Positions 20,046 to 58,120 of a DNA stretch of 64,000 nucleotides are shown here, piece after piece (within the stretch, counting starts at the first letter, position 1; every line of letters starts with the position of its first letter). Under the pieces are notes generated by a model. That model made no database searches. It worked only from the letters and a program-made list of their open reading frames with translations, and was not told the DNA's origin. The DNA lies in contig JAUYKM010000009.1 of the NCBI GenBank assembly GCA_030699125.1, positions 204,958 through 268,957 of the forward strand, given 5' to 3'. The DNA comes from Candidatus Daviesbacteria bacterium (GTDB lineage Bacteria; Patescibacteriota; Microgenomatia; Daviesbacterales; UBA10151). Position numbers and translations under genes: made by a program.

Positions 20046-21646
20046 AAAAAGCTTTGGTATCAGTAGTTATAGTAACAAAGGATAGAAAAAATGATTTAAT
20101 TGAGTGTACTAATTCCTATATTAAATCAACATATAAGCCAATAGAAATTATAGTTATAGATAATGCCTCAAAGCCTTCTTTATTAACATGGCTACCAAAA
20201 AAATATCCAAAAGTTAAACTTATTACTTCTGATAAAAATCTAGGTGCAGCATCTGGGAGAAACTTAGGATTTGATCATTCGAAAGGTGAGTATATTCTTT
20301 TTACAGATGATGACGCTGTTTGTGATAAAGATATGATTACTCAATTAGTGAAAGTTTTCGAAGATAAAAATGAAGCAGGAATTGTTCAACCGTTAGTCTA
20401 CGATAAGCATCGAAAGAATATGCTGCAAGGTGCAGGTCATGATATTGATCTTACAACAGGAAGGATTAGAGCATCAGGTGTGAAAGAAGTTGATAGGGGA
20501 CAGTATGATGGTTTAAGGGAAGTGCCGATGTGTGGTTGTGTGTGGATGGTAAAAAGGGAGGTCTTTGAAAAGATTGGCAGCTATGATCCGGATTATTTTA
20601 TTCCATATGAAGATTGCGATTTTTCTGTAAGGGCAAGGAATGCAGGATTTAAGCTCTATTGTATATCTTTGGGTAAGACTTGGCATCGAGGCCCTAAGAA
20701 TACATTTGTTCATCCCTGGATAGAATGGCTTGGTATTACTTCCCCCGAAAGAGCATACAGAATTGCCAGAAATAAAATGATATTCATGAGAAAAAATTCA
20801 CCATTTCCTAACAATCTTATTTTTTTCTTTTTGTTTCTTCCAATATATACTTTAGCTCATAGTTTAATTATTCTATTGACGGGAAAGTTCGATATCTTTT
20901 TAAAGTATTGGTTAGGAGTTATATCCGGAGTTTGGTATGCTATAACTTTCCCTGTCAGAGATATTGTTAGATCTAACTATAGGAAGATTGATAAATTATC
21001 ACGTCCTATAAAAATGTTCCTAATTGCAACAACAGATCCTGTTAATTGGGTAATTGATACAAAAAGTGAATCTATTCTGGATTTGGGTTGTGGACCTGGT
21101 AAATTAATGGAATTTATAAAATTCAAAATGAAGGTAAGAAAAGCAGTCGGTGTTGATCTCTTTGCTCCTTATATTGAAGAGGGAAAATTAAGAAAAACTC
21201 ATGATCAATTTATATTGGAAGACGTAAGAAAAGTGAAATTTAATAATAAATCTTTTGATATTGTACTTGCCTCTCATGTACTTGAGCATTTAGGTAAAAA
21301 TGATGCTTGGAAACTTTTGAGTAATATGGAAAAGTGGGCAAAAAGACAAGTTATTGTGGCAACGCCAATTGGTGAACATTACCATCCTCCTGAGGATGGT
21401 AATCCACTACAGCTTCATCATAGCGCTTTCCAGCCTGAAGATTTTGAAAAAAGAGGTTATAAAATACTAAAATATGGCTGGAAATGGTTACTTGGAGATA
21501 AGGGATTAGTTCATAAAATAGATAATGATTTGATCAGAAAAATCATCTATACATTTAATATTTTGATTACCCCCATACTTTATTTATTTCAAGAAAGCTG
21601 TGACTATATTTTTGTAGCTATTAAAAGGGTAGATGAAAAGTTATAA
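20042..21646 (+). CDS. Bifunctional GT2 glycosyltransferase / SAM methyltransferase fusion
   Basis: 534 aa. The N-terminal half (VSVVIVTKDRKND ... FTDDDAVCDKD) is GT2. The C-terminal half (ILDLGCGPGKLME ... VLASHVLEHL) is a methyltransferase. Both halves are paralogous to the two upstream stand-alone genes. Confidence 0.75.
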   Translation: MKKALVSVVIVTKDRKNDLIECTNSYIKSTYKPIEIIVIDNASKPSLLTWLPKKYPKVKLITSDKNLGAASGRNLGFDHSKGEYILFTDDDAVCDKDMITQLVKVFEDKNEAGIVQPLVYDKHRKNMLQGAGHDIDLTTGRIRASGVKEVDRGQYDGLREVPMCGCVWMVKREVFEKIGSYDPDYFIPYEDCDFSVRARNAGFKLYCISLGKTWHRGPKNTFVHPWIEWLGITSPERAYRIARNKMIFMRKNSPFPNNLIFFFLFLPIYTLAHSLIILLTGKFDIFLKYWLGVISGVWYAITFPVRDIVRSNYRKIDKLSRPIKMFLIATTDPVNWVIDTKSESILDLGCGPGKLMEFIKFKMKVRKAVGVDLFAPYIEEGKLRKTHDQFILEDVRKVKFNNKSFDIVLASHVLEHLGKNDAWKLLSNMEKWAKRQVIVATPIGEHYHPPEDGNPLQLHHSAFQPEDFEKRGYKILKYGWKWLLGDKGLVHKIDNDLIRKIIYTFNILITPILYLFQESCDYIFVAIKRVDEKL

Positions 21647-24600
21647 GAGTCTTTTACCGATTGCTATATTTGTCCTACTTTCAACAATTCTGATATTTTC
21701 TTGGTTTAGGTATGGATATTTATATGGTGGAGGAGATGTAGGTATACCTTCATATAATCCGGCAAGGGTTCTAGAATTTGCCAAAAATATCTGGTGGGAG
21801 GCGTCTGCTCCTGGGGCACCTGTTGCACAGGGGTTAACTTCCGTACCAATGCAGTTTTTTCAAACTACTCTTGCAAAAATTGGCTTACCGTATTTTTTAA
21901 TTCAAGCAGTGTTATTTTGGATCATCCTTTTTTCAATGGGGATGGGTATGTATTGGGTGGGACTGACAGTTTTTGGGTCGAAAAATTTAATTCTTGCTAC
22001 TCTCTCTGGCCTTTTTTACATGCTAAATCCATATACAATGATTCAAGTTTGGCACCGCTCTATCTACAATACATTTTTTCTAGCAGCTGCATTTCCATTT
22101 CTTTATATATTCTGGAGTTATTGGATAAAAAGGGGAAAATATTATCTTCTATTGCTATTTCTCCTGGTCAATATTTTGAGCGTTTATATGTTTGGTACCT
22201 TAGGATTTATTTTTGCCATACTTTTTTTACTGTTGTTTGAAAGCTTGATAGAAATTTTTTTGCCTTGGAAAGGAAAAGCTCATTTAAAGACTATCATATT
22301 CAGATCTATTTTGGGGATAATCTCCTTTTTCATTATTCATATTTGGTGGCTTTGGCCAGTTTTTAATATTACTCCTCTAACTGTTTCCCAACAGCATACC
22401 ATTGGTGAAAACTTAGCAGTTTTAAGAGGAATCAGCAGTCAAACTATAATTCCCTATAGCCTAATAGGTATAAATCCTTTCTATCTTTATGAGGTTGCTG
22501 ACTGGGGGGAAATTTTTGACTTTTCATTTTTCCGCTTCAGTCCTTATCTAATTTTAATTTTTTTGATCCCAGGAATATGGAAATCCTTAATAACTCAGGG
22601 TTTAACTAAGTGGGCGTTACTATTTTTTACAGGGATGTTGTTGCTTAAAGGGGCAGCCGCTCCTTTTGGAAATTTATTTTATTTAGCTTTCAGTAACCTA
22701 TTTATTTTAGGTACTATAAGAAATCCTTTTGAGAAGTTGGGAATCTTTTTACCCTTTTCGGCGGCAATACTTTTTGCGCTGGGGGTGGATTGGATAATAA
22801 AAAGAATTAAATTGAAATTTATTGTTTTCCCTGTGATTTTTATAACCTTCTTTATAATATTTGGAATAAATTTATGGCCGATGTGGTTGGGAAAATTGTT
22901 TGACAGTAGGGAACAATCAAGTTTTGTGGTAGTTCCCAACGATTACAACCAGGTTGATGATTTTATAAAAAGAGAAGGAAAAGATGGAAAAATTTTACTA
23001 CTTCCCTTAAATTCCGGTGAATCAGCCAAATATAATTGGTTAAAAGGATACCATGGTTTGGCTCTGGGCCAGCATTTATTTACCTCCCTGCCCTCAATTT
23101 CGCACGGTTTTAATGTAGCTTATGTTGATAATGCTATTGATGCCTTATCTAAATCCTTCAACCCGGATAGTCAGACTGACAAGAAAAAGATTCTCGCTTT
23201 CCTGCAAGCATTTAATATTAGATATATTATTCTACAAAATAATTTAGACTGGCGAGTTAGTAAAACATTGGAACCGAAAAAAATAGAACAACTGCTGTCG
23301 AGTTTAGATTTCTTAGTTCTAAAGGGACAATTTGGTGAATTAGAGATTTTTGAAGTAAAGGAAGATTTCTTTTCTCCAAGAATTATTTTATCTTCCAATA
23401 TTCAGTATTTAAATTTACCATCAGCAAATATTTGGCCATATCTTTTGAAAGAAAAAGACGGTAATTTTATTACTCCTATTAATAAAGACAATGAGGATGT
23501 TAATCCTTTTCAGGTGGGAGAAGTAATACTGGTACCGCAGAATTTTTATATCTATGATTTAACGATACCTCCAATAGAAAGAGCCGTTGGGGAGTTACCT
23601 GCAGCCAGCAGAATTTTACCCAATAACCCATTGTATTTTTTAATTAGTTTAAAAGAGTTAGTGCAGCTTCTACCTTTAGTCTATCAAGATAAGTTTATTT
23701 CACAAATTAACTTTTCCGGAAAAAGACTGATTGAGGCTTATAAGTTACAGGAAAAAGAAAAGTCTTCCATAGTTTCTACAATTAATTCATATAATAATTT
23801 AATTGCTGATATTTTTGAAGGAGATTTCCTAAAGAAAGAATTGAATCTTTCAATAAATCGGGAAAGTTTACTGAATGATGTTTTCAATAAGCACATCAGC
23901 ATTTTAAATTATTTAGAATCTCAGACTGAGGGTCAGGATCAAGAGGCAGTGAAAGAAGCATTTGTTAAGTTGAATAGTTATCTAATTAGCCATGATTTGG
24001 TACCAAAATATTTAACTGATTTTAAACCCTCTTTATATCAAATATCAAACCTTTATATTCCGCAAGACGGTGGATATAACCTTTTTTTAACTAGAGAAAA
24101 CACAGAGTCTATTTATCAGAATCAGTTGAAAGAGTTTCATTTCCTAATAAATGGACAAACGTACAATCTTACGGGAGAGACTCAAGATCAGTTTATAGAT
24201 TTTGGCCAACTTAATTTTAAGAAGGGGCAGTATGAAATTGGATATGAAGTAATTGATTCAGTGAATCTAGTCGGTGACTTGGAAAAAATTAAAACCGAAG
24301 GACAAGTAAGTTATCTCAATGGTGAGTGGGAATCTACATCAGGAGAACACGAACCCTCATATATAGAAATTCCTATAAATCCGGTTAGTCCTCATACAAA
24401 TTATCAAATTCAATTTGATTCTTGGATTAAACTGGGAGATAAATTTAAGATACAGCTAATTCAAGAGACGGATATATTTGATAAAAAAATAAATGACCAT
24501 AAAAGAGATTTCGAAAAGGTAGTATTTAGAAATATTTACAATAATTATTGGAATGAAAATATTTTTATTTTCACACTTGATGAAAAAAGTTCTAAAGCCA

Positions 24601-25133
24601 GTATTCGGATAATTTTGGAACCTTGGGATGATTGCCGAATAATCTTAGTCAATAAAAAGTTATGTGATAAAAAAGATTTTCGCTTCCCCTTTGAACATAA
24701 AAGCTCTATATCATTAAGAGATATAAAGCTGGTCAGAAAACTTAACAATAGATTATTTATCAAATCTACCAATAATGAGCTAGAAACCGGAAGTATTGAC
24801 TCCAATCAAGTAATAAATCTTATGAGTATAAGTCCGACCCTATTTAATGGGAAAATTAAAATAACAAAACCGACATTTTTGATCTTTAAGGAAAGTTATC
24901 ATCCAGACTGGAAATTATCAATTAAAGATGGAAACTTTAATAATAATCACCTGCAGAGATTTTTGGCAAATGGTTACTCTAATGCCTGGTATATAGATCA
25001 GGAGGGTACATATGAGTTTAGTTTAGAATTTACTCCTCAAAAACAGGTTTTGATAGGAATTTTAATAAGCGTTGGTTATTTTATAATAATAATTATCTTA
25101 ACTTTTTGGCAGATTAGAAGGAGAGTTAAATGA
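21633..25133 (+). CDS. Giant polytopic membrane protein, YfhO/AftD-like GT-C architecture (paralog 2)
   Basis: 1166 aa. N-terminus SWFRYGYLYGGGDVGIPSYNP...IWWEASAPGAP. A ~430-aa multi-TM domain is followed by a ~700-aa soluble region. The C-terminal module YHPDWKLSIKDG...NGYSNAWYIDQEGTYEFSLEFTPQ precedes a final TM. Confidence 0.55.
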   Translation: MKSYKSLLPIAIFVLLSTILIFSWFRYGYLYGGGDVGIPSYNPARVLEFAKNIWWEASAPGAPVAQGLTSVPMQFFQTTLAKIGLPYFLIQAVLFWIILFSMGMGMYWVGLTVFGSKNLILATLSGLFYMLNPYTMIQVWHRSIYNTFFLAAAFPFLYIFWSYWIKRGKYYLLLLFLLVNILSVYMFGTLGFIFAILFLLLFESLIEIFLPWKGKAHLKTIIFRSILGIISFFIIHIWWLWPVFNITPLTVSQQHTIGENLAVLRGISSQTIIPYSLIGINPFYLYEVADWGEIFDFSFFRFSPYLILIFLIPGIWKSLITQGLTKWALLFFTGMLLLKGAAAPFGNLFYLAFSNLFILGTIRNPFEKLGIFLPFSAAILFALGVDWIIKRIKLKFIVFPVIFITFFIIFGINLWPMWLGKLFDSREQSSFVVVPNDYNQVDDFIKREGKDGKILLLPLNSGESAKYNWLKGYHGLALGQHLFTSLPSISHGFNVAYVDNAIDALSKSFNPDSQTDKKKILAFLQAFNIRYIILQNNLDWRVSKTLEPKKIEQLLSSLDFLVLKGQFGELEIFEVKEDFFSPRIILSSNIQYLNLPSANIWPYLLKEKDGNFITPINKDNEDVNPFQVGEVILVPQNFYIYDLTIPPIERAVGELPAASRILPNNPLYFLISLKELVQLLPLVYQDKFISQINFSGKRLIEAYKLQEKEKSSIVSTINSYNNLIADIFEGDFLKKELNLSINRESLLNDVFNKHISILNYLESQTEGQDQEAVKEAFVKLNSYLISHDLVPKYLTDFKPSLYQISNLYIPQDGGYNLFLTRENTESIYQNQLKEFHFLINGQTYNLTGETQDQFIDFGQLNFKKGQYEIGYEVIDSVNLVGDLEKIKTEGQVSYLNGEWESTSGEHEPSYIEIPINPVSPHTNYQIQFDSWIKLGDKFKIQLIQETDIFDKKINDHKRDFEKVVFRNIYNNYWNENIFIFTLDEKSSKASIRIILEPWDDCRIILVNKKLCDKKDFRFPFEHKSSISLRDIKLVRKLNNRLFIKSTNNELETGSIDSNQVINLMSISPTLFNGKIKITKPTFLIFKESYHPDWKLSIKDGNFNNNHLQRFLANGYSNAWYIDQEGTYEFSLEFTPQKQVLIGILISVGYFIIIIILTFWQIRRRVK

Positions 25134-25468
25134 AAAAAGGCAAAATCATAAAATTTATTTCGGCGTTTTTTATAATTTTCCCTCTGATATTTTTTGCAAA
25201 TACTACCTCGTTAGCTAATAGTGAAGTTATACTTTTGCAGAATTTAATTTTTTCTGTTTCTTTAGCAAGTCTATTAATTTGGCCGTATCTTAAAAAGTAT
25301 TACCTTATATTGTGCTTAATCCTAATTATTGTAATGGTTTTTTTATCAACTTTTAAATTACTTGAAGCTGCAGATTATGCTGGTAGTACCGCTTTTGGAA
25401 TAATGTTCTTTGTTTTATTAATTTATCTACCTGTATTAGTTAGAAGGGGACATATTAATGAACTATAA
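25130..25468 (+). CDS. Small 4-TM membrane protein, candidate lipid-linked-sugar flippase subunit (GtrA/ArnE-like by architecture only)
   Basis: 112 aa with four hydrophobic helices. Its start overlaps the stop of the preceding giant gene. It is a paralog of the 28909 gene (shared C-terminal YLP.L.R.G). Confidence 0.4.
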   Translation: MKKGKIIKFISAFFIIFPLIFFANTTSLANSEVILLQNLIFSVSLASLLIWPYLKKYYLILCLILIIVMVFLSTFKLLEAADYAGSTAFGIMFFVLLIYLPVLVRRGHINEL

Positions 25469-28400
25469 TCGTTTTAAATCGCCCTTAATTTTTTTTCTTT
25501 TATTTTCCGCCACTTTAATTTTTATCTGGTTTAAACAGGGATTAATCTATGGAGGTGGAGATGTTGGTTTGCAAACTTATAATCCACAGAGAACTTTGGA
25601 AAATGCGCAATATATCTGGTGGGAGGCGGTTGCCCCCGGAAACCCTATTCCCCAAGGGTTAACAGCTGTTCCATTTCACTTTATTTTTTCCAAACTGCAA
25701 CTGATAGGTTTTGGTCCGGTTCTTCTGCAAGCCACGTTATTCTTTTTGATTTTATTTTTTATGGGTTACGGGATGTATAGATTACTTTTATCTATTTTTA
25801 ATGTAAACAAATTTTACGCCATTTTGGGCGGTTTATTCTACATGATTAATCCATATATGATGGTGCAGGTATGGCATAGATTTGTTCACTCGACTTTTTT
25901 TTTGGCAGCTGCACTGCCATTTTTGGTAATTTTTTGGACAAACTGGATTAAAAAAGGTAATTCTTTTTCTCTTTTGCTCTTTTTATTTACCAATCTGATA
26001 GCTGTTTATTTATATGGAACTTTAGCTTATTTATTAACCGTCTGGATATTGCTTTTTCTGATAACTCTTGGAGAAATTATTATTCCCTTTACCAATCTCA
26101 AACATTCAAGTAGGTTGTTAGTTAAATTCTTAATAGGCTTCATTTTGTGGCTGTTAACTAATAGTTGGTGGTTGGTACCTACTTTTAGTGTTGGGCCAGC
26201 AACATTCGCTCAACAACATACAGGTGAAGAAAGTCTTGTAACTTTAATTAACATCAGTAAACAAACGATTATTCCTTACTCATTGCAGCTTGTTAACCCA
26301 TTCTATCTATTTCTCCAGGCAGAATTGGGACAAGTTTATGCAAATGGCCTTATGAGAATAATTCCTTGGCTTTCAGTCATTTTTATATTGATTGGCTTGA
26401 TAAGTGGGTTAAAACAGAAGAAAATTGTGCTTTATTCATTGATATTTTTAATTGTACTACTTTTTGCAAAAGGAGCTGCTTCACCATTTACTTATCCATA
26501 CATCTTTGGCTTTGAACACTTGTTTAGTCTTGGAATTTTAAGAAATCCCTTTGAAAAAATAGGTATCCTTTTGCCATTTGTTGGTAGTATTCTTTTGATA
26601 GCAGGAATAGGATCATTAAGGACATTTTTTTCAAGATTTAACAGAGTCTATTATATTAATTCAGCAATTATACTTTCCTTTGTTGCTTTAATTATTTTTC
26701 ATTGGCCAATGTTTATTAGTCAACCATTTGGTAAACCGAATAATCCGGGTTATGTACAAGTCCCCCAAAGTTATAAAGACACAGATAATTGGATTAAAAA
26801 TGAGGTTAATATAAATTATAAAAGTAACATAGGTAAGATACTGCATCTCCCTCTACCCCTTGGAGAAAGCGTTTCGTATAAATGGAGGTGGGGATATAAC
26901 GGACTTGAATCTTCGGACTTACTATTTAGTTCACTACCCTCAATCTCGCATGGATTTAATATCAGTCGATTAGATGATTCTTTAACTGCATTATCTTTGT
27001 CATTTCTTAATTTCGGTATTAGCAATCAGAATTATATTTTGCGTCTTTTGCAAAATTTTAATGTTAGATTTATCGTTCTGCATAAAGATATTAACTGGCT
27101 TGGAGGAGATTTATATGACCCCACTCTTATTGAAGAAAAACTTAATCAATTAAATTTTCTAAAAAAATCTGCATCATTTGAAGACTTGTTAGTTTATAAA
27201 GTTTCAGATGATAATTTTAAACCAAAGATAAATTTAACGGTTAATTATCAGCTAATATATCCATCAAATAATGGTACGTTTTGGCCTTGGAGTCTAACTA
27301 ATGATAATCTTATGATTACTCCTTCTTTGGATGATCAGATAAACAACGATACGATTGATTTGGCAAATCAAGTGATAGTTTTTCCCGAGTCTTCATTTAA
27401 CTATCCACACTCTGTTTTCATTAATAATTTAGTTGACCAAATTGCTAGTAGTGAAGCATTAGCTCAATCATTAATTTCTGAGATAAGGAAGGTAAAGCCT
27501 ATTTTATTGCAAAACGGTGAGATAAATGCTGAACACATAAATGACAAGTTGATTTCAGCAACTGAAAAGATGATAGTAATGTTGAAAGCTAAAAGAGAAA
27601 ATTCTGAAATTACTAATAGTCAACTAGATGATTATAAGATGGACATGGAAACTATTTTCTCTCAAGACTTAAGAAATTCTAGGTTATTACTTTACATAAA
27701 TGAAAGAGATATGAGTCTCTTTTTACAAGTTCATTTTCATTCATTGCCCAAATTAAAAGAGGGATTAAATCCTAATATTCAAATACAGGTAGATGGAATA
27801 TCCCAGTATCTAAATAACCAATTAATCAGATATAACCTTATCCCGCAGTACTCACTCAAATTAGATACAAAAGAAGGTATAGATAGTCAAAAAGTTTTTA
27901 AATTTAAGATACCCAAAAAGTATCAATATGAAATTTTGATGATAGATATAAAAGGTAGCACCCTCTACCCGACCTTCCTACAAAAGATAAATTTAAGTAT
28001 CAATGGTCAGGTTAAGGAATTAACTGGTCAATTAAAAGAGAATGTTATGTCTTTTGGGTATTATGAATTTGATTCTGGTGATGTGGAGATAGGATACAAT
28101 ATTATTTCTTCATCAAATCTGGCTCAGTCATTTGATAATTTAATTAAGATTGGGAATGTAACTATAGCAGATGGTGTGATAAAGGTAGAATCAATTGGAG
28201 GAATTGGGTATATCGAAAGTTCAATTCCTGGCGCTAGGGGGGGAGATGTCTACCGAGTCAGTTTTGAAGTTATGTCACAAAATGCTAATGGTTTTAATTT
28301 TCAATTGGCTCAAGATATAGACAATATCAATGAAGCAGGTAAGAAAGTACCACAACTGAATGAGTTTATTAATCTAACACCAAACAATTGGCAGCACTTA

Positions 28401-28919
28401 AGGTTTACACTAAACCCGTTAAAGTTAACTACTCAAGAAGCATCAATAAGGTTGATAGTTTCTTCTAACCCACAATCATTAACACAATCGGCTATTTCGA
28501 TAAGAAACTTAAAAATAGAAAAGATATTAAATAATGATATAGTGCTGAAAGCTGTTTTAAATGAACAAAACAGTGAAGATGATGGGGGGCAAATATTGGA
28601 TATATCACAGAAGAGTCCAGTACTTTATCATGGAAAAGTAAAAATTATCAAACCTTCTTTTTTTATTTTTAGTGAGACATTTCATCCGGGATGGAAACTG
28701 ACCTTAAGCGATGGCCACAAGAATTTTTCACCAAAAGAGCACTTGATGGCCAATCTTTATGGTAATGCTTATTTTATAGATCAAATTGGCGAATATGATT
28801 TTATCTTAGAATTTGAGCCACAAAGATTGGTAAATAGGGGGGCTCTAATTGCATTTACAACGTATGTTGGTTTAATTATGTTTATAATTTGGAGGAGATT
28901 TAGAAAACATGAGAGTTAA
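25458..28919 (+). CDS. Giant polytopic membrane protein, YfhO/AftD-like GT-C architecture (paralog 3)
   Basis: 1153 aa. N-terminus IWFKQGLIYGGGDVGLQTYNP...IWWEAVAPGNP. The C-terminal FHPGWKLTLSDG...NLYGNAYFIDQIGEYDFILEFEPQ module precedes a final TM. It is collinear with paralog 2. Confidence 0.55.
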   Translation: MNYNRFKSPLIFFLLFSATLIFIWFKQGLIYGGGDVGLQTYNPQRTLENAQYIWWEAVAPGNPIPQGLTAVPFHFIFSKLQLIGFGPVLLQATLFFLILFFMGYGMYRLLLSIFNVNKFYAILGGLFYMINPYMMVQVWHRFVHSTFFLAAALPFLVIFWTNWIKKGNSFSLLLFLFTNLIAVYLYGTLAYLLTVWILLFLITLGEIIIPFTNLKHSSRLLVKFLIGFILWLLTNSWWLVPTFSVGPATFAQQHTGEESLVTLINISKQTIIPYSLQLVNPFYLFLQAELGQVYANGLMRIIPWLSVIFILIGLISGLKQKKIVLYSLIFLIVLLFAKGAASPFTYPYIFGFEHLFSLGILRNPFEKIGILLPFVGSILLIAGIGSLRTFFSRFNRVYYINSAIILSFVALIIFHWPMFISQPFGKPNNPGYVQVPQSYKDTDNWIKNEVNINYKSNIGKILHLPLPLGESVSYKWRWGYNGLESSDLLFSSLPSISHGFNISRLDDSLTALSLSFLNFGISNQNYILRLLQNFNVRFIVLHKDINWLGGDLYDPTLIEEKLNQLNFLKKSASFEDLLVYKVSDDNFKPKINLTVNYQLIYPSNNGTFWPWSLTNDNLMITPSLDDQINNDTIDLANQVIVFPESSFNYPHSVFINNLVDQIASSEALAQSLISEIRKVKPILLQNGEINAEHINDKLISATEKMIVMLKAKRENSEITNSQLDDYKMDMETIFSQDLRNSRLLLYINERDMSLFLQVHFHSLPKLKEGLNPNIQIQVDGISQYLNNQLIRYNLIPQYSLKLDTKEGIDSQKVFKFKIPKKYQYEILMIDIKGSTLYPTFLQKINLSINGQVKELTGQLKENVMSFGYYEFDSGDVEIGYNIISSSNLAQSFDNLIKIGNVTIADGVIKVESIGGIGYIESSIPGARGGDVYRVSFEVMSQNANGFNFQLAQDIDNINEAGKKVPQLNEFINLTPNNWQHLRFTLNPLKLTTQEASIRLIVSSNPQSLTQSAISIRNLKIEKILNNDIVLKAVLNEQNSEDDGGQILDISQKSPVLYHGKVKIIKPSFFIFSETFHPGWKLTLSDGHKNFSPKEHLMANLYGNAYFIDQIGEYDFILEFEPQRLVNRGALIAFTTYVGLIMFIIWRRFRKHES

Positions 28920-29244: not shown

Positions 29245-29405
29245 TTATAACCTTTATACTTTTTCAAATAGGATTAATAATGGTATTTTTGGTAATTACT
29301 GGTAATCATCCGGGTTTCGCTCAATATCTGGTTAAAATTACCTTCTTTATACTAGTTATCGCTATTATTTTTTATAATTCGAAATTATTCAATGCAAAAA
29401 AATAA
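29241..29405 (+). CDS. Possible 54-aa two-TM micro-protein (not in ORF track)
   Basis: ATG at 29241 overlaps the upstream stop (ATGA), and the stop at 29403-29405 overlaps the start of the next gene. It is entirely hydrophobic. Support is weak. Confidence 0.25.
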   Translation: MIITFILFQIGLIMVFLVITGNHPGFAQYLVKITFFILVIAIIFYNSKLFNAKK

Positions 29406-32061
29406 TTTTTTTTTGATTCTCATAGTTTCTTTTTTAATTTTTTCATTTTGGATGTTTTGGCTACCTGGCTTAAGAGTGGCTACAGATTACCATCAAGCAG
29501 ATCAAAAAGTTATATTGAATATTTCGTTTCCTTGGGTTTGGAGAGAAGTTGGTGTGGCCGATGGTTTGGGAGAATATACAGGTAGCTCTTTATGGTTTCA
29601 ACCATTCCTTTCCCTTTCAGGCCTTTTAACATTAATTTCTATTCCATTTTGGTTACAAACTAAATTATGGGTTTTCTTGATACTGATATTGGGGTTCGTC
29701 TCCCTGAATAAACTTTTAAAATATCTAAGGATTAATTTTTTTGCAAGATATGTTGGGATATTTTTTTATCTTTCTAATTCTTTTTTTCTACTGCTTATTG
29801 ATGGAGGACAATTATCTTTAGCCTTAACTTATGGAGTTTTTCCACTAAACATTTATTTTTTTCTAAAAAACATTGATCAATCAAATTTTAAGAATAAATT
29901 ATATTTATCTGTTTCAATCTTGGTAGTTTCAATTTTAGATATCAGATTTGTTTATCTTTTAATTATTATTTTCTTAATACAATTTTTGATACTTCTATTT
30001 ACAGGCAATTGTCTTAAACTTTTAAAAGAATCTTTTTTTTATGCTTTATTAACATTAATTATTCTTTTGGGTTTTCATTCTTATTGGCTATTGCCAACTG
30101 CATTAAAACCTCCTCAATTACCACAAACATACGGAAGAGCTTCTCAAGTTGATTTTTTAAGTTTTTCTACTCTGGGTCATTCATTATTTCTTGAACAGCC
30201 GCACTGGTATAAAAATGTCTTTGGTCAAATTGAAAATATCAGAGGTGAGTTTGTATTGATACCCATGTTAGTTTTTTTGGCTCCAATCCTAAGGAGAAGG
30301 GACAAAGCAGTTGGTTTTTGGCTGATTGTTGCTATATTGGGAATTTTTTTAAGTAAAGGTTCACAGGAACCATTGGGAAAAGTCTATTCCTGGTTATTTA
30401 GCAATATTCCCGGCTTTTCATTTTTTAGGGATCCGGTTAAATTCTATTTTTTAACTAGCTTGTCGTACAGTATATTACTGGGTATTACGGTTCAAGAGAT
30501 AAATAACTTGAAATTAAAAAAAAATCTTATAGATAGATCTTTAAAATTCCTTCCTTTCTTAATACTCATATATCTTGTCTGGTTGATAAGGCCAGTGTAT
30601 CTCGGTCAGATGACAGGACTTTTTTCCTATCCGATATATGAGAAAGAATTTAGCAATTTAACGGAAAACATAAATGAGGATCAAAACTTCTCCAGAACTT
30701 TTTGGATTCCTACAAAATCACCTCTAGGTATAAGTTCTTTGCTGCATCCATCCGTTGAAGCATCAAGGTTGGTACAAAAAAGACCATTTGCTATTGGTAC
30801 AATTGGCAGTTATGAGACTTTAAACTTTTTGAGGGAAGCTACCTTTATGGGAGAAATTTTTGATGTATCAGGGATAGGCTATATAGTTTATCCTTATCTT
30901 GATCCCAAAAGAGATGATATGCATCCGGACAGTATAAGATATTTTTACACATTTTCTAACCAATTATCAGATTTATCATGGTTAACTAAAGTTGATAAGT
31001 CTCCAATTCCTCTTTGGCAAGCAAAAAAACACCAAGATAGATTTTTTATAACTCCCAATATTTGGTGGGTAATTGGATCAGATGATATTTATAATGAGTC
31101 TACTAAAAGTGCCCAGCTTCAATTATCTAAAAATGCACTGGTTTTCGTTGAAGAAAAAGCCGGCCTGGGCCAGAGAATAGATGAAAATCCGTCAGCAAAA
31201 ATAGTTTTAAACAAGAAGACTCTTGTAGATCTGGCAGCCAGTTTCATAGATGATTCAGAGTTTATTTTTCCAGCAAAGAATTTAGACTTTGACCCAAATG
31301 AGTCAGGATGGTGGAAGAGGGAGGTAGCGGACCTGATTAGGTGGAGGGATTTTTTACAAACAAAGTATGGAATTGATAATTTAGATTTTGATTTAGGTGG
31401 AGGTTGGGCGGTAGGAGAAGGAAGTTTAAAGTTTAAAGTTAAAAGTGAAAAATTTAGTGAAAATAGGATGCTTTTAGCTAGGGTATTGGAGAGTACCAGA
31501 AGTGGGCAGTTAAGATTTTATCAAAATGGTCAATTAATTGGTGAAATAAATACAAAAAAAGAGGGGAATAATATCCGATGGTTTGAGGTGGGGGAGTTGT
31601 CCAGGGATCGTGGTGAATTAAATATTGAGTCATCAGGGGATATTAATGTAGTTAACGCGCTGGCCATTATTGAGAAAAACTTATGGCAAGACGATCAAGA
31701 TAAGGCTAAGCAGTTACAAAAACAAAATCGCATCATGAACTACGATAAGAATAATGTTCAGGATACTAAGACAGAAGTTACCTATCAAAAAATTAACCCT
31801 ACCAAATATAAAGTTACTGTGAGTGGATTAAAAGGCGAAGCTTTTTTAGTATTTTCTCAAAATTATGATGGACTGTGGAAACTGAATGATCAGTTCTCCC
31901 TTCCTATTTATAGCCTACTAAACGGATTTAAGGTAGAAAAGGATGGAGAATATATTGTAAAATTTGAGCCGCAAAAGTGGGTTTATCCGGGATTGATAGT
32001 TTCTTTTATCACGTCGGTATTTTTAATAGTTACATGGGTATTACTACGAAAAAAAGGCTAA
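29392..32061 (+). CDS. Giant polytopic membrane protein, YfhO-like GT-C architecture (paralog 4)
   Basis: 889 aa. An N-terminal multi-TM domain is followed by a C-terminal soluble domain ending DGLWKL...NGFKVEKDGEYIVKFEPQKW and a final TM. Confidence 0.5.
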   Translation: MQKNNFFLILIVSFLIFSFWMFWLPGLRVATDYHQADQKVILNISFPWVWREVGVADGLGEYTGSSLWFQPFLSLSGLLTLISIPFWLQTKLWVFLILILGFVSLNKLLKYLRINFFARYVGIFFYLSNSFFLLLIDGGQLSLALTYGVFPLNIYFFLKNIDQSNFKNKLYLSVSILVVSILDIRFVYLLIIIFLIQFLILLFTGNCLKLLKESFFYALLTLIILLGFHSYWLLPTALKPPQLPQTYGRASQVDFLSFSTLGHSLFLEQPHWYKNVFGQIENIRGEFVLIPMLVFLAPILRRRDKAVGFWLIVAILGIFLSKGSQEPLGKVYSWLFSNIPGFSFFRDPVKFYFLTSLSYSILLGITVQEINNLKLKKNLIDRSLKFLPFLILIYLVWLIRPVYLGQMTGLFSYPIYEKEFSNLTENINEDQNFSRTFWIPTKSPLGISSLLHPSVEASRLVQKRPFAIGTIGSYETLNFLREATFMGEIFDVSGIGYIVYPYLDPKRDDMHPDSIRYFYTFSNQLSDLSWLTKVDKSPIPLWQAKKHQDRFFITPNIWWVIGSDDIYNESTKSAQLQLSKNALVFVEEKAGLGQRIDENPSAKIVLNKKTLVDLAASFIDDSEFIFPAKNLDFDPNESGWWKREVADLIRWRDFLQTKYGIDNLDFDLGGGWAVGEGSLKFKVKSEKFSENRMLLARVLESTRSGQLRFYQNGQLIGEINTKKEGNNIRWFEVGELSRDRGELNIESSGDINVVNALAIIEKNLWQDDQDKAKQLQKQNRIMNYDKNNVQDTKTEVTYQKINPTKYKVTVSGLKGEAFLVFSQNYDGLWKLNDQFSLPIYSLLNGFKVEKDGEYIVKFEPQKWVYPGLIVSFITSVFLIVTWVLLRKKG

Positions 32062-35470: not shown

Positions 35471-36198
35471 TCCTCACCATCATCATCCCAGTCTTTAATG
35501 AGGAAAAAACAATCGAAAGACTTTTAAAAAAGGTTGTGGAGGTTAATTTGCCTAAGGGTATCAAAAAAGAAATTATTGTTATTGATGATGGATCAACCGA
35601 TAAAACTCAAAAAGTTTTATCGGAAATTCGAAATTCCCGCTTCGCGAGGCGAGCGAAATTCGAAATTCGAGTTTTAGGACATGATAAGAATAAAGGAAAG
35701 GGTACAGCAATAAGAACTGGATTAAAGTATGCCGAAGGAGATTACATAATCATTCAGGATGCGGATCTAGAGTATGATCCAAATGATTACAATACTCTTC
35801 TAGAACTAGTCATCTCTAAGAAAGCTCAAGTGGTTTATGGAACAAGACTGATAAATTATCCTTTTAAGATTTTGGGCAAAAACAAAACTGTGATGCCTAT
35901 TCATCTATTGGCCAATAAATTCTTAACAACTTTCACAAATTTATTATATGGAAGTAAACTAACTGATATGGAAACTTGTTATAAACTTATTAAAAGCGAC
36001 ATTTTTAAAAAAATTACATTAAAAGCTAATCGGTTTGATTTTGAACCGGAAGTGACAGCAAAAATATTAAAACTAAAGATTCCAATAGTTGAGGTCTCGA
36101 TTAGTGTTAAGCCAAGGACATACAAAGAAGGTAAAAAAATTGGATGGCTGGATGGATTAGTAGCGATCTGGATTCTATTAAAGCATAAATTTAGTTAA
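35467..36198 (+). CDS. GT2 polyprenyl-phosphate sugar synthase (DPM1/Ppm1/GtrB-like) carrying an in-frame GC-rich mini-insertion
   Basis: 243 aa with IIIPVFNEEKTI, IVIDDGSTDKT, NKGKGTA and IIIQDADLEYDP, the hallmarks of the dolichyl/undecaprenyl-phosphate glycosyltransferase family. Confidence 0.75.
   Translation: MILTIIIPVFNEEKTIERLLKKVVEVNLPKGIKKEIIVIDDGSTDKTQKVLSEIRNSRFARRAKFEIRVLGHDKNKGKGTAIRTGLKYAEGDYIIIQDADLEYDPNDYNTLLELVISKKAQVVYGTRLINYPFKILGKNKTVMPIHLLANKFLTTFTNLLYGSKLTDMETCYKLIKSDIFKKITLKANRFDFEPEVTAKILKLKIPIVEVSISVKPRTYKEGKKIGWLDGLVAIWILLKHKFS
35623..35668. repeat. GC-rich 18-nt core flanked on each side by two GAAATTC heptamers; in-frame insertion within the GT2 gene
   Basis: The sequence reads GAAATTC GAAATTC CCGCTTCGCGAGGCGAGC GAAATTC GAAATTC and encodes ...EIRNSRFARRAKFEIR... 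Removing 33 nt (core plus one heptamer pair) restores a family-typical ...EIRNSVLGHDKNKGKG. Confidence 0.5.
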
Positions 36199-44931: not shown

Positions 44932-45534
44932 ATGGCTATATTTCATAATCGGATGGGTCAAGAACTATCTGGGAGGCAAGCATCATCCAAGATTGCCAAC
45001 CGTCTCTATAATTATCTGGCTGATTTTGCCCTTTTTTGTATACAAGTGCTTTCGTATATTCCCTCTCACCATATTCGGAGATTTCTATACAGATTGGCTG
45101 GTGCAAAGATTGGTCAAGGCAGCACGATACATATGGGCTGTAGTTTTTTTTCTTTAAAAAAAGTGAGTATTGGAGAAGATAGCCTGATAGGACGAGGTAC
45201 TTTTTTGGATGGCAGAGCCCCCCTAAAGATTGGTGACCATGTAGATATTGCCTCAGAGGTGATGATTTATAATAGTGAGCATAATATTAATTCCGATGAC
45301 TTTCATGCCACACTTGCCCCAGTTGAAATAGAAGACTATGTATTTATTGGTCCCAGAGCCATCATTTTACCTAATGTAAGGATTGACAAAGGAGCTGTAG
45401 TGGCAGCAGGAGCTGTTGTGACAAAAGATGTTAATGAGTTCGTCATAGTAGGTGGAGTACCGGCAGAGGTGATTGGTGAGAGGAAACTGAAAGATCCAAA
45501 GTACAGATTAGGAAGGGCACGATTGTTTCAGTAG
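44932..45534 (+). CDS. Hexapeptide-repeat acetyltransferase (WcaF/CapG-like polysaccharide O-acetyltransferase)
   Basis: 200 aa with the tandem hexapeptides IGEDSLIGRGTFLDGRAPLKIGDHVDIASEVMIY and IGPRAIILPNVRIDKGAVVAAGAVV. Confidence 0.7.
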   Translation: MAIFHNRMGQELSGRQASSKIANRLYNYLADFALFCIQVLSYIPSHHIRRFLYRLAGAKIGQGSTIHMGCSFFSLKKVSIGEDSLIGRGTFLDGRAPLKIGDHVDIASEVMIYNSEHNINSDDFHATLAPVEIEDYVFIGPRAIILPNVRIDKGAVVAAGAVVTKDVNEFVIVGGVPAEVIGERKLKDPKYRLGRARLFQ

Positions 45535-45539
45535 CCAAT

Positions 45540-45606
45540 TGTCATCCTGAGGGCGAAGCCCGAAGGATCTCTCAACCCATTCGGGTCTGAGTCCCTCAGG
45601 GTCGAA
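45540..45606. repeat. GC-rich structured intergenic element (TGTCAT + imperfect long hairpin)
   Basis: TGTCAT-CCTGAGGGCGAAGCCCGAAGG-ATC ... CCCATTCGGGTCTGAGTCCCTCAGGG. Pairing is CCTGAGGG/CCCTCAGG and CCCGAA/TTCGGG. It lies directly after the stop at 45534 and is unlike the AT-rich flanks. Confidence 0.5.
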
Positions 45607-45613
45607 GACTTGT

Positions 45614-46225
45614 TTGAGACTTGCATTCGCAAGAGATTCTTCGCTAATCGCTCAGAATGACAAAAAAGATATGAAATATTCTTTTATCATTTTTTCTCTA
45701 CTACTTCTAATTTATATGCTCTGGCCCGGGCCCACGAAAATTTCCGATTCCCCCCCTCTTCCAAATTCTGATAAATCCACTCTGGAAGGTGATACTATCC
45801 AAATACCAAACGTCTCAGCATATTTTTCCAACAATTTTAGGGATTTTGCTACCAGCTTTTATCGAAATCATTACCAGAACTCATCTCATTTTCCTTTCCC
45901 ACCACTCACGCTGAATCATCCTCCGGAATATTCCTGGATTGCCATAAAAAGGCACACGGATACCACCTATTTGGAAGAATTTGCTTACCCTCTTAGGGAT
46001 TCCTTGTATGTGAACGGTTTGGAGCCATTTTATGAAGACGGTTCACCTAAATTTTGGGGTGCCACTATGTTTGAGATTGGTCCTGCAAATTTCTTTACTA
46101 AGGTAACATTAAGATTTTATCCGTCAAATATTCTAGTCAGAATTATCGTTTGGTTAGGTGTAGTGGTGTCTATCTGGTTACTTTTTAAATTAGGCAAGCA
46201 AATTGTTTTGCAAAAATATGAGTAG
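45614..46225 (+). CDS. Hypothetical membrane-anchored protein
   Basis: 203-aa ORF. The probable start is at 45671 (MKYSFIIFSLLLLIYMLWPGP), which gives one N-terminal TM and a C-terminal TM. There is no recognisable family. Confidence 0.4.
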   Translation: MRLAFARDSSLIAQNDKKDMKYSFIIFSLLLLIYMLWPGPTKISDSPPLPNSDKSTLEGDTIQIPNVSAYFSNNFRDFATSFYRNHYQNSSHFPFPPLTLNHPPEYSWIAIKRHTDTTYLEEFAYPLRDSLYVNGLEPFYEDGSPKFWGATMFEIGPANFFTKVTLRFYPSNILVRIIVWLGVVVSIWLLFKLGKQIVLQKYE

Positions 46226-47654
46226 ACTCTTATCCATTTATAGTAAATCATTATTTATTCTAGCTGCATTTTTATTTGCTTTTATTCCTCTTTATCCCAA
46301 GTTCCCTTTTTTAAATATTGCAGGAACTTTTGTAGCAGTAAGATTGGAAGATATTCTGATTGCTTTTTTGGCCGTATCTTGGGCAATTTATATTGTTATC
46401 TCTAATAAATTGAGAGATCTCCTCAAAGATAGACTAGCTCAAGTTTTGTTGCTTTTTTTCTTTATTGGGGCTGTCTCTTTAATTTCAGGCATATTTTTAA
46501 CTCATAGCGTCTCAGGGAGTATTGGTTTACTACATCTTTTAAGAAGGGTTGAATATATGATTCTTTTGCCAATTGTGGCCACCCTTATTCAAACTAAGAA
46601 ACAATTTATAATGATTCTAATAACATTGGGGGCTGTTTTGCTAGCAGTGAACTTATATGCTTTAGGCCAGCAATTCTTAGATTGGCCGGTTATCTCTACC
46701 ACCAATTCTGAATTCTCCAAGGGATTGATTTTAAGACTGACTCCTGGAGCGAGGGTCAACTCCACTTTTGCAGGACATTATGATTTGGCGGCATTTTTGG
46801 CAATGGCATTATGTCTACTTAGTGCACTTTTCTTTGCTGTTAATAAAAGGATAAAAATAGTGGTAATTTTATTGTTTGGGAGCTCCCTTTTAGTACTGGT
46901 TATGAGTGCTGCCAGAGTTTCATTTATGGCGGCATTCTTTGGAATAATTGCTGCTCTAATCTTTTCTAAGAAAAAGAAGTATTTAATTTTCATATTCATT
47001 GCATCTTTATTGATCTTACTTTATCCCTCTCAATTAAGGGATAGATTTATTTCAACTATCACTATAAATATTTTAAATTTGGGCCAAAGATATGAAGGAC
47101 AAACGCAAGACCAGCACATCAGAAGCAAACTTAATATACCCACATTGGCAATTAAAACTTCCTCCCGGTCAGCAGAATCTTCAACTTTTGCTTCGCCCTC
47201 GGGTTCCACAGCCACAGATATTACTCCGGGTGAACCGCTAGATACCACACAGCTCGGGGTTTATAGATCTTTTCAAATTAGGCTAAATATTGAATGGCCC
47301 AGAGCCGTAAGAGCGTTTATTAAAAATCCGCTTTTGGGAACTGGCTACTCCTCAATTGATATAGCAACGGATAATGATATTTTAAGATCGTTAGGGGAGG
47401 TGGGATTGTTAGGAACTTTTGCCTTAGGACTAGTATTTATAGAGGTTGGTAAAAGGATCCACTGCTGTTTTAGAGATGAATCCAAATTAATTAAATATTT
47501 TTCTGCAGGCGTGTTAGCTATCATGATTGCCTTTTTGATAAATAGTTTATTCATAGATGTATTGGAAGCTTCAAAAGTAGCCACTCTTTTCTGGATGATA
47601 TTAGGTTTAAACTTGGCAGTATTGTCATTCCCGCGTATGCGGGAATCCAATTAA
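46203..47654 (+). CDS. Wzy_C-type O-antigen ligase/polymerase-like polytopic membrane protein
   Basis: 483 aa with ~12 TM helices. RAVRAFIKNPLLGTGYSS resembles the conserved O-antigen-ligase loop motif. It carries an S/T-rich, GC-rich insert at ~47150-47260. The last 7 codons are contributed by a GC hairpin. Confidence 0.55.
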   Translation: MFCKNMSRLLSIYSKSLFILAAFLFAFIPLYPKFPFLNIAGTFVAVRLEDILIAFLAVSWAIYIVISNKLRDLLKDRLAQVLLLFFFIGAVSLISGIFLTHSVSGSIGLLHLLRRVEYMILLPIVATLIQTKKQFIMILITLGAVLLAVNLYALGQQFLDWPVISTTNSEFSKGLILRLTPGARVNSTFAGHYDLAAFLAMALCLLSALFFAVNKRIKIVVILLFGSSLLVLVMSAARVSFMAAFFGIIAALIFSKKKKYLIFIFIASLLILLYPSQLRDRFISTITINILNLGQRYEGQTQDQHIRSKLNIPTLAIKTSSRSAESSTFASPSGSTATDITPGEPLDTTQLGVYRSFQIRLNIEWPRAVRAFIKNPLLGTGYSSIDIATDNDILRSLGEVGLLGTFALGLVFIEVGKRIHCCFRDESKLIKYFSAGVLAIMIAFLINSLFIDVLEASKVATLFWMILGLNLAVLSFPRMRESN

Positions 47655-47695
47655 TAATATTTGTTAAATGGATCCCTGCCTTCGCAGGGATGACA
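47623..47695. repeat. Inverted pair of GC-rich hairpin units (TGTCAT-TCCCGC-GTAT-GCGGGA-ATCCA ... TGGAT-CCCTGC-CTTC-GCAGGG-ATGACA)
   Basis: Two units lie in opposite orientation, separated by a 19-nt AT spacer. The outer TGTCAT/ATGACA and ATCCA/TGGAT arms are complementary, and each unit carries its own 6-bp GC stem. The pair overlaps the stop of the 46203 gene and the annotated 5' end of the 47668 gene. Confidence 0.55.
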
Positions 47696-55118: not shown

Positions 55119-55805
55119 ATGAGAGGGTTTAGGGTTGAAGGGATTATTTTAAAGAGGAGAAATTTTGGGGAGGCGGATCGGATTTTAACTGTTTTTACAC
55201 TCCAGAGAGGTAAGATTTCTGTTTTAGCAAAAGGAGTCAGAAGAATTACCTCCAGACGGGCCGGCAGCGTGGAACTTCTCAATAGAAGCATCCTATATTT
55301 ACATGTGGGGAAGGGGATGCCAATTTTAACTGAGGCTCAAAGTTTGGATACTTATTCTAAGCTGAAAAATGACCTGACACTTTCAACGTATTCTTTCCAT
55401 ATTATAGAGTTGGTTGATAAGTTAACCGCAGAGAACCAAGAAAACAGGATTTTATATGAGCATTTAGTGGAAGTTTTTAAAAGACTGGAAAGAAATCCCA
55501 GACAAATTTTAATTAGAGCATTTGAAGCAAAAATACTTGCCAATTTAGGCTTTATTTCTTTTAAAAACCCGCCACAGTCAAACGTGGCTGGGACGTTTGA
55601 CGTCCCGCAGGTGTCAATACAAATACACCCCAAGGGTGTACATATAAAATTATTAGAAGAGTTGGAGATTCTATCTTGGGACGAAATAGAAAAAATGAAA
55701 ATAAATCAGAAAGAGGCTATAGAACTTGAGCGTGTATTACGCTATCATGTAGAGAGAGTATTAGAAAGTTCACTCAAGAGTAGAACATTTCTGAGGAAAC
55801 TTTAA
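55119..55805 (+). CDS. recO: DNA repair protein RecO
   Basis: MRGFRVEGIILKRRNFGEADRILTVFTLQRGKISVLAKGVRR is the canonical RecO N-terminal OB-fold. Synteny with the downstream glycyl-tRNA synthetase is conserved. No Cys4 zinc finger is present. Confidence 0.85.
   Translation: MRGFRVEGIILKRRNFGEADRILTVFTLQRGKISVLAKGVRRITSRRAGSVELLNRSILYLHVGKGMPILTEAQSLDTYSKLKNDLTLSTYSFHIIELVDKLTAENQENRILYEHLVEVFKRLERNPRQILIRAFEAKILANLGFISFKNPPQSNVAGTFDVPQVSIQIHPKGVHIKLLEELEILSWDEIEKMKINQKEAIELERVLRYHVERVLESSLKSRTFLRKL
55568..55612. repeat. GC-rich nested hairpins embedded in frame in recO
   Basis: GTCAAACGT (55577-55585) pairs with ACGTTTGAC (55593-55601). A nested GGGACG/CGTCCC stem lies inside. It encodes NPPQSNVAGTFDVPQVS. 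Confidence 0.45.
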
Positions 55806-58056: not shown

Positions 58057-58120
58057 GTCCCGCCAAAGGCGGGACTTGACAATTGGCATGAAAATGGCGG
58101 AAAATAGTAATAGATGGTGA
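58057..58120 (+). promoter_or_regulatory. GC hairpin + TTGACA -35-like hexamer + two ATGGnGn boxes upstream of mraZ (candidate dcw promoter / MraZ operator)
   Basis: GTCCCGCC-AAA-GGCGGGAC hairpin at 58057-58075. TTGACA at 58076-58081. ATGGCGG at 58093-58099 and ATGGTGA at 58113-58119, 20 bp apart. Confidence 0.3.

Follow-up and report, generated by a model that had tools for sequence, protein, structure and literature searches.

What is the GC-rich hairpin that separates an acetyltransferase gene from its downstream neighbour in a genome of Candidatus Daviesbacteria, and how did it come to lie there? The stretch of DNA that we analysed, in the following called the window, comprises 64,000 nt of a Candidatus Daviesbacteria bacterium (GCA_030699125.1, contig JAUYKM010000009.1, positions 204,958-268,957 of the forward strand). 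The initial annotation had described an element of about 67 nt starting with TGTCAT at position 45540. Together with hairpins at five further sites it had been assigned to a family of miniature palindromic elements comparable to REP (repetitive extragenic palindromic) sequences or to Rickettsia palindromic elements. We found two inverted doublets of a tagged hairpin, element 1 at 45540-45662 and element 2 at 47623-47695. Judged by their sequence these doublets are CGTC/TGTC-tagged REPs, or Ssn-related motifs (SRM), a known kind of repeat that is met here in a bacterium of the candidate phyla radiation. Both are discrete insertions (123 nt and 72-73 nt, respectively) without target duplication, and both are situated in a conserved surface-glycan operon.

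Two doublets of a tagged hairpin

Searching both strands of the window for TGTCATYC yielded four relevant sites, which form two facing pairs, 45540(+)/45662(-) and 47623(+)/47695(-). The remaining matches, at 18462 and 41612, have no hairpin. The four units, termed A and A' in element 1 and B and B' in element 2, are built alike: the tag TGTC is followed by AT-stem-loop-stem-AT and then by C(C/T)(A/C). Their stems are four different sequences, all of them paired. In both elements the tags point outward, and the spacers measure 61 nt (element 1) and 19 nt (element 2). The tail reads CCA in B and B' and CTC in A and A'; in related loci it is CCA or CTA.

Chance GC-rich hairpins were ruled out as an explanation. 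A strict unit detector, which demands GTCAT[CT] followed by a hairpin with AT/AT as its closing pairs and by a C, found 3 units in the window, where 0.023 are expected from 300 dinucleotide shuffles. In addition, a covariance model was built from 32 units, with B and B' among the training set and A and A' not, and was run over the window in an unfiltered scan; it recovered only the four units B, B', A' and A. A formal covariation test on the collected units would have been circular and was set aside because these units had been selected for folding. The comparison of B with B' and the counts in real and shuffled sequences were used instead.

Element 2 (47623-47695, 73 nt) is the cleaner doublet of the two. 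It is located at the end of a Wzy-like gene, 12 nt upstream of the ATG (47707) of a PMT_2 gene. Unit B (47623-47649, plus strand), TGTC/ATTCCCGC GTAT GCGGGAAT/CCA, combines a stem of 8 bp with a loop of 4 nt and the tail CCA, and folds as DNA with -9.0 kcal/mol (z -4.5). Unit B' (47669-47695, minus strand), TGTC/ATCCCTGC GAAG GCAGGGAT/CCA, is of the same size in stem (8 bp) and loop (4 nt); its DNA fold reaches -8.5 kcal/mol (z -3.9). B and B' differ in two stem pairs, and both changes are compensated. The spacer in between (47650-47668) is AT-rich, with 5% GC and complementary ends, and includes the TAA (47652-47654) that now ends the Wzy-like open reading frame (ORF). For the whole element the folding z-score is -6.1 (RNA) and -6.4 (DNA). 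The recurrence of units with TGTCAT, a GC stem and ATCC at 47623-47695 had been noted before and was borne out.

Element 1 (45540-45662, 123 nt) is a composite doublet with TGTCAT at its left and ATGACA at its right end. It takes up 123 nt of the 136-nt spacer between the stop codon of the acetyltransferase gene (45534) and the ATG of the next gene (45671). The upstream gene (44932-45534, plus strand) codes for a hexapeptide-repeat acetyltransferase (Pfam Hexapep, E 1.3e-16). From position 45540 the element reads TGTCATCCTGAGGGCGAAGCCCGAAGGATCTC…, in agreement with the start given in the initial annotation. Unit A (45540-45571, plus strand), TGTC/ATCCT GA GGGC GAA GCCC GA AGGAT/CTC, forms a long bulged hairpin, in the following called A-type, which folds as DNA with -6.3 kcal/mol (z -2.4) and obtains 15.7 bits (E 0.29) from the covariance model. 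A near-identical unit with one compensated pair (ATTCT/AGAAT) is present in the related locus L260 at 14535 and beside an ssn-like gene in L410. The minus-strand unit ending at 45662, TGTCATTCTGAGCGATTAGCGAAGAATCTC, is unit A' (45633-45662), TGTC/ATTCT GAGCGATTAGCGA AGAAT/CTC. It is of the A-type with a decayed inner stem and resembles the units around the ssn-like gene of L390. Its alignment to unit A scores 35, a value reached by 0 of 500 shuffles, and it obtains 16.7 bits (E 0.18) from the covariance model; its DNA fold is weak (-2.8 kcal/mol, z -0.27). In A and A' alike, a 2x2 internal loop separates an outer stem of 5 bp from a short inner one.

The spacer of element 1 (45572-45632) contains at 45580-45601 a partial mirror copy of the unit A core (TTCGGG…CCCTCAGG). 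It also holds a small stem-loop, CTTGC ATTC GCAAG (45620-45633). The same CTTGC-ATTC-GCAAG stem-loop lies beside the right-hand unit of the doublet at 14535-14654 in L260. The 67-nt hairpin at 45540-45606 is unit A pairing with the partial mirror of its own core. Its arms CCTGAGGG/CCCTCAGG and CCCGAA/TTCGGG do pair as had been proposed; as single-stranded DNA the segment folds with -14.5 kcal/mol (z -2.7), a value that 1 of 200 shuffles attains. Its GC content is indeed far above that of its surroundings, with 58% compared with 34% for the whole window. The extent of about 67 nt, by contrast, was wrong and covers the left half only: a second, inverted unit ends at 45662, and therefore the element spans 45540-45662. 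Over this full length the fold has a z-score of -4.8 for RNA and of -3.6 for DNA.

The sole exact public match to the acetyltransferase gene of the window is a Logan contig of 1.5 kb (L001, SRR13727534). Its match to unit A, at 1440-1474, runs to the contig end, which lies inside the unit (…GAAGGAT), as would be expected if the assembler broke at a repeat.

Empty sites in syntenic relatives

Related loci were fetched with the acetyltransferase adjoining element 1 as homology anchor. The best relatives were metagenome-assembled genomes (MAGs) of Microgenomates/Patescibacteria, with Ca. Daviesbacteria at 75% identity. Five loci (L242, L250, L259, L262, and L263) have the same six-gene order with protein identities of 61-75%. 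At the junction between the acetyltransferase gene and the next gene, four of the five (L242, L250, L259, and L263) have an ATGA overlap or a 1-nt spacer. At the junction between the Wzy-like and the PMT_2 gene the stop and start codons overlap or nearly abut in all five. Because the relatives have overlapping or abutting codons at these junctions, both elements are lineage-specific insertions. The comparison of orthologous loci for presence or absence, proposed in the initial annotation, thus revealed empty sites at both positions. No target-site duplication was found at either element (flanks CCAAT and AAAAAG for element 1, AGTAT and CAATAA for element 2), nor at the doublets inspected in relatives.

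The insertion of element 2 can be read from the protein as well. The Wzy-like gene (46203-47654, plus strand) codes for a membrane protein with a Wzy_C domain (O-antigen-ligase-like), and its last 10 codons (SFPRMRESN and the stop codon) are encoded by element 2. Homology to the relatives stops at residue 473, corresponding to about nt 47621. Deleting 72 nt of element 2 in silico restores the sequence …GCA GTA TTC AAT AAT TGA G ATG, that is, a normal-length C-terminus with TGA 1 nt before the next ATG. We infer that elements 1 and 2 broke two translational couplings and rewrote one C-terminus at this locus. The earlier statement that some copies are inserted in frame into ORFs holds for element 2 only insofar as the gene upstream takes its final 10 codons and its stop from it; the intragenic hairpins cited for it could not be demonstrated to be members of the family.

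Two minor observations concern the relatives. In L262 a different, AT-rich insert of about 120 nt with TTTCTAAT/ATTAGAAAT inverted repeats is present at about 10600-10725, at the junction that corresponds to that of element 1. Several of the syntenic, low-GC and Microgenomates-like loci (L243, L248-L250, L259, L262, and others) are titled 'uncultured Gammaproteobacteria'; these are probably mislabelled MAGs.

Relation to CGTC-tagged REPs, NTS and FtrB

In a blastn search of element 2 against plasmid and replicon records the unit of about 26 nt was found in Neisseria gonorrhoeae, at no fewer than 40 places per record. It was also found in Legionella, Azospirillum, sphingomonads, Cupriavidus, Photobacterium, and Francisella.

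Two publications describe repeats of this kind. First, Di Nocera, De Gregorio, and Rocco (2013, BMC Genomics 14:522, PMC3733652) distinguished four families of REPs with the tag CGTC, often TGTC. The stems of these repeats comprise 8-9 bp and start with AT, the loops 4-5 nt, and the tail is approximately CCA. Mostly they are arranged as inverted dimers with spacers of 20-100 bp, whose ends may be complementary or one of whose ends may bear a small stem-loop. Neisseria dRS3 and Rickettsia RPE-4 and RPE-6 are members of this superfamily, which was reported in five phyla, Patescibacteria not among them. Second, in the Ssn paper (Nat Commun 2025;16:2388, PMC11893778) dRS3 was extended to the 28-nt NTS with the consensus CGTCATTCCCGCGMAVGCGGGAATCYRG. 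SsnA, a GIY-YIG nuclease of 94 aa, binds NTS exclusively in single-stranded DNA, neither the duplex nor RNA being bound, and makes its cut a few nucleotides upstream. The C just after the palindrome is critical for binding, and the three nucleotides before the palindrome are critical for cleavage. Homologues of ssnA across phyla are flanked by SRM.

Units B and B' fit the CGTC-1 description point for point, with an 8-bp stem beginning A-T, T-A, a 4-nt loop and a CCA tail. All four units carry the TGTC variant of the tag. Both doublets are inverted heterodimers whose spacers of 19 and 61 nt, compared with about 20-100 bp, have complementary ends or a small stem-loop, and, as for CGTC-1, no transposase is associated with them. 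Intragenic in-frame copies, a further trait shared with CGTC-1, exist as well, for example in the related locus L284 (see below). The initial comparison with REP and Rickettsia palindromic elements was therefore apt, since the units fit the CGTC/TGTC-tagged superfamily and recur in relatives.

The agreement with NTS/dRS3 includes the bases that matter for SsnA. All four units keep the GTC, the AT…AT closure and the C. Unit B agrees with NTS in the whole palindrome (ATTCCCGC…GCGGGAAT) as well as in the preceding GTC and the following C, and by manual count 24 of the 28 consensus positions are shared. The location of the doublets in a surface-glycan cluster is reminiscent of the clustering of NTS near surface and virulence genes. 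There are also differences: the leading base is T and not C, A and A' are longer and bulged, and the host is a low-GC Patescibacteria genome. Furthermore, the window has two doublets in 64 kb rather than dense arrays, and it has no ssn gene. What is new is the occurrence of CGTC/TGTC-tagged REP/SRM repeats in a phylum that is not named in the accessible text of PMC3733652 or PMC11893778.

At gathering thresholds no Rfam family was found in the window. In a permissive Rfam scan unit B matched the hairpin of the Francisella small RNA FtrB (RF02748) at 47595-47662 of the window, with 31.5 bits against a gathering threshold of 66. FtrB contains GUCAUUCCCGCGUAGGCGGGAAUCUC, which is essentially unit B, and the rest of the 115-nt RNA is unrelated. 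Homology to FtrB was rejected, since only the hairpin aligns. The probe sequence in the FtrB paper confirms the hairpin motif. FtrB thus embeds an NTS/SRM-type hairpin, and weak FtrB matches in other phyla are likely to be this type of repeat rather than the small RNA.

Units and Ssn-like genes in related genomes

The strict detector was also applied to a Microgenomates sample of 80 loci (1.37 Mb). It returned 21 units compared with 0-1 in shuffled sequences, which bears out the idea of a dispersed family. The stems of these units vary (TTCCCGCG, TTCCGCAC, CCCCGTG, CTTCGGGC, TTCCCATG), and in five of five adjacent pairs the tags point outward. The glycan operon is hit at several junctions: doublets are located upstream of the acetyltransferase gene in L287, a single unit upstream of it in L299, and an ssn cassette in L321. 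In L284 a TGTCAT…ATGACA doublet (9395-9500) lies in frame within the orthologous GT4 glycosyltransferase gene. It adds about 35 codons (…CHSESASERTRNLMQNKSVEKDPSTQPSASLGMT…) and leaves the ORF open, resembling the in-frame insertions of Rickettsia palindromic elements.

Ssn-like proteins were sought with phmmer and jackhmmer. The locus L321 (Ca. Gottesmanbacteria) contains a complete unit-ssn-unit cassette (9573-9960) between the orthologous GT4 and acetyltransferase genes, a junction that measures at most 40 nt in most relatives and is filled by the cassette in L321. The ORF of the cassette codes for a GIY-YIG protein of 94 aa (Pfam E 2.9e-15) and is flanked by AGTCATCCCGACCGAAGTGGAGGGATCTA (plus strand) and TGTCATCCCGAGCGTAGTCGAGGGATCTT (minus strand), with the tags outward. 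By tblastn the L321 protein matched a single site in N. gonorrhoeae, a 94-aa ORF inside NTS arrays (47% identity, E 6e-28). The gonococcal ORF has Y6, Y17, and E64, the residues of SsnA that were mutated in PMC11893778. From this agreement it is taken to be the SsnA orthologue.

Further Ssn-like genes were found between units of both types, whose tags point outward as they do in the doublets. The one in L410 shares 47% identity with the gonococcal ORF; before it comes TGTCATTCTGAGGGCGAAGCCCGAAGAATCTT, which differs from unit A by one compensated pair, and after it an A-type unit on the minus strand. In L390 the Ssn-like gene has A-type units around it (TGTCATTCTGAGCGAAGCGAAGAATCTG), and in L223, L163, and L124 the units around the Ssn-like genes are of the B-type. 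Going by these neighbourhoods, the long bulged A-type unit appears to be cognate to Ssn-like genes, yet it is missed by the published SRM motif.

Both unit types are very common in viral contigs, where broad patterns gave at least 120 matches, and in the metagenome collection, where one scan likewise gave at least 120. The exact unit A and the pattern of tail plus small stem-loop gave 0 matches each in viral contigs.

Some additional features were seen near the cassettes. In L321 extra partial copies (GGGATGACA…) follow the cassette. Near the ssn cassette of L410, at about 9640-9800 and 10280-10320, there are runs of truncated units (TGTCATTCTGAGGGCG[A/T]AGCCTTTA, 3-4 times) and repeated …GCTCAGGATGACA ends, perhaps products of stuttered or abortive copying. 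Loci from two separate Microgenomates MAGs, L260 (19598-19861) and L274 (18697-18966), have small ORFs of another GIY-YIG subfamily directly upstream of tRNA-Pro(TGG), without flanking TGTCAT units.

Origin of the doublets

How could such doublets arise? We consider it probable (about 0.72) that they are gene-less inverted doublets of the CGTC/TGTC-tagged REP hairpin (dRS3/NTS/SRM), that they constitute Ssn sites, and that they are non-autonomous derivatives of the unit-ssn-unit cassette. The palindrome of each unit would form a hairpin in single-stranded DNA, with GTC unpaired just 5' and C just 3' of the stem. A GIY-YIG nuclease of the Ssn family would recognise this hairpin only in single-stranded DNA and would nick a few bases 5' of the tag. 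The doublets would then be related to the cassette in the way that REPINs are related to RAYT cassettes. Any consequence for the host would consist in Ssn cleavage of the operon DNA in single-stranded states such as arise in uptake, replication, or repair. In this operon the doublets are probably tolerated passengers rather than regulators.

Several points weigh against this explanation. To our knowledge, nobody has shown that Ssn mobilises these repeats. The window itself has no Ssn-like ORF. Most of the ssn-flanked loci were selected for containing units, so that L321, fetched by acetyltransferase homology, is the sole unbiased case. A and A' are outside the range of 8-9 bp stems and 4-5 nt loops given for CGTC-1, and the fold of A' is at chance level. 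The published SRM search motif, HGTCWYN(0-2)YYVSBRHN(0-5)WNVSBRGN(0-2)RNCYNB, has no strict match among the four units: B fails only at the last base of the tail, whereas A, A', and B' fail in the stem. Finally, no transposase linked to CGTC repeats was found in PMC3733652.

If the doublets are what we take them to be, a repeat/nuclease pair characterised in Neisseria extends to the candidate phyla radiation. The genomes of this group are small and tightly packed, so that any insertion stands out readily in a comparison with relatives. From the clear contrast of filled and empty junctions it is seen that doublets arrive as discrete units without target duplication, and the whole cassette in a relative likewise. 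Such filled and empty sites bear on how CGTC/SRM repeats spread, since no transposase is known for them. There are two practical consequences. First, the peptide tails SFPRMRES, CHSE…, and …LGMT in these genomes are repeat-derived, and annotators should be warned of them; second, a longer type of unit that is very common escapes the published SRM motif.

One may go a step further and suppose that the doublets without a gene are non-autonomous transposable elements that Ssn mobilises in trans, the unit-ssn-unit arrangement being a new kind of single-stranded-DNA insertion sequence. We put this forward tentatively and regard it as rather doubtful. The operon would then record such activity in four forms: gene-less doublets (the window, L287, and L284), a single unit (L299), a doublet in frame within a gene (L284), and a whole ssn cassette (L321). 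The long bulged A-type hairpin would stand for a separate class of Ssn specificity, one that the published motif leaves out.

Alternatively, the hairpins could act at the level of RNA. Transcribed along with the operon, they might make the mRNA more stable or direct its processing, decouple the translation of neighbouring genes, or be the source of a small RNA, in the manner of E. coli REPs or of FtrB in Francisella. In favour of this, the genes on both sides of each element point in the same direction, so that the element would be part of the transcript, and both elements fold strongly as RNA (z -4.8 and -6.1). The same hairpin is also part of FtrB, an expressed small RNA of Francisella. It has also been argued that many REPs function as RNA elements (PMC3733652). 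Nevertheless, we consider this explanation unlikely. Neither element has a site resembling an intrinsic terminator. As each doublet has one unit per orientation, no single RNA strand contains both tags, and the conserved unpaired GTC and C are explained by DNA recognition through SsnA, which does not bind RNA (PMC11893778). Moreover, the relatives get by without the elements, their genes being tightly overlapped, and the deletion of ftrB had no phenotype in growth, stress, or virulence according to the FtrB paper. An effect at the RNA level is compatible with the Ssn-site explanation as a side effect rather than as the reason for the family to exist.

The TGTCAT…ATGACA ends could also be terminal repeats of classical miniature inverted-repeat transposable elements, that is, deletion derivatives of an insertion sequence with a DDE transposase that move by cut-and-paste. 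The ends are inverted repeats, and at 73-123 nt, AT-poor, in intergenic junctions and with empty sites in relatives the elements have the look of such derivatives. This origin was set aside as very unlikely, because there is no target-site duplication and the arms are not simple copies of each other but independent hairpins with compensated stem differences. Also, the only gene found between such arms codes for a 94-aa GIY-YIG nuclease and not for a transposase.

Slightly less probable again is that the units are landing pads for another mobile element, such as an IS110/Piv-type recombinase or a filamentous phage, with the palindrome as integration site, as has been reported for dRS3 in Neisseria. 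The unit core is the same palindrome, and dRS3 is cited as a phage recombinase target in PMC11893778. However, none of the four units is interrupted by an integrated sequence, no gene for a recombinase was seen in the vicinity of the elements (Pfam was run on selected ORFs only), and a secondary use of this kind would leave the origin of the repeat unexplained.

The GTAG-type REPs, BIMEs, and REPINs mobilised by a RAYT (Y1 HUH) transposase share the architecture (a short palindrome with an unpaired tag, inverted doublets, no target duplication, and an enzyme gene flanked by its own repeats), yet membership in that system is the most improbable of the explanations considered, as the tag is TGTC and not GTAG, CGTC repeats are never associated with RAYT genes (PMC3733652), the flanked genes code for GIY-YIG rather than HUH Y1 enzymes, and no RAYT was seen, although no dedicated RAYT screen was made and the window was not specifically screened for a Y1 transposase.

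Other hairpins and genes in the window

Four of the six sites listed in the initial annotation proved to be unrelated to the two doublets. The hairpins at 893-913, 35637-35654, 55568-55612, and 58057-58075 were rejected as members since they have neither the GTCAT tag nor the ATC tail. The covariance model did not report those at 893, 35637, and 55568 at E<=10; at 58058 it matched the stem core only (E 2.3).

The hairpin at 893-913 looks like an intrinsic terminator. On the minus strand (885-925) the sequence CCCCGCTTT-AAA-AAAGCGGGG is followed by TTTT, downstream of a gene for a DegT/DnrJ-type aminotransferase (1046-2173, minus strand). The 5' side of this hairpin (TCATCCCCGC) is loosely similar to half a unit.

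The hairpin at 35637 is situated in a variable loop of a GT2 glycosyltransferase gene and folds no better than shuffled sequences (z -0.75). It belongs to a GC-rich patch, CCCGCTTCGCGAGGCGAGCG, between direct GAAATTCGAAATTC repeats (35625-35672), again without the GTCAT tag. In this region the GT2 protein of the window has 5-10 residues more than the proteins of the relatives.

At 55562-55615 two adjoining GC-rich hairpins lie inside the gene for RecO, just past the end of the Pfam RecO_C match (residue 145). RecO proteins usually carry a zinc finger; the region encoded here, the usual place of the zinc finger, has no cysteines. The hairpin at 58057 is located between a gene for a hypothetical protein and mraZ.

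Four large ORFs of the window (8325-11045, 21633-25133, 25458-28919, and 29392-32061) code for proteins of 889-1166 aa that have no Pfam match at E<=1e-5. All four sit within the long run of glycosyltransferase and surface-glycan genes.

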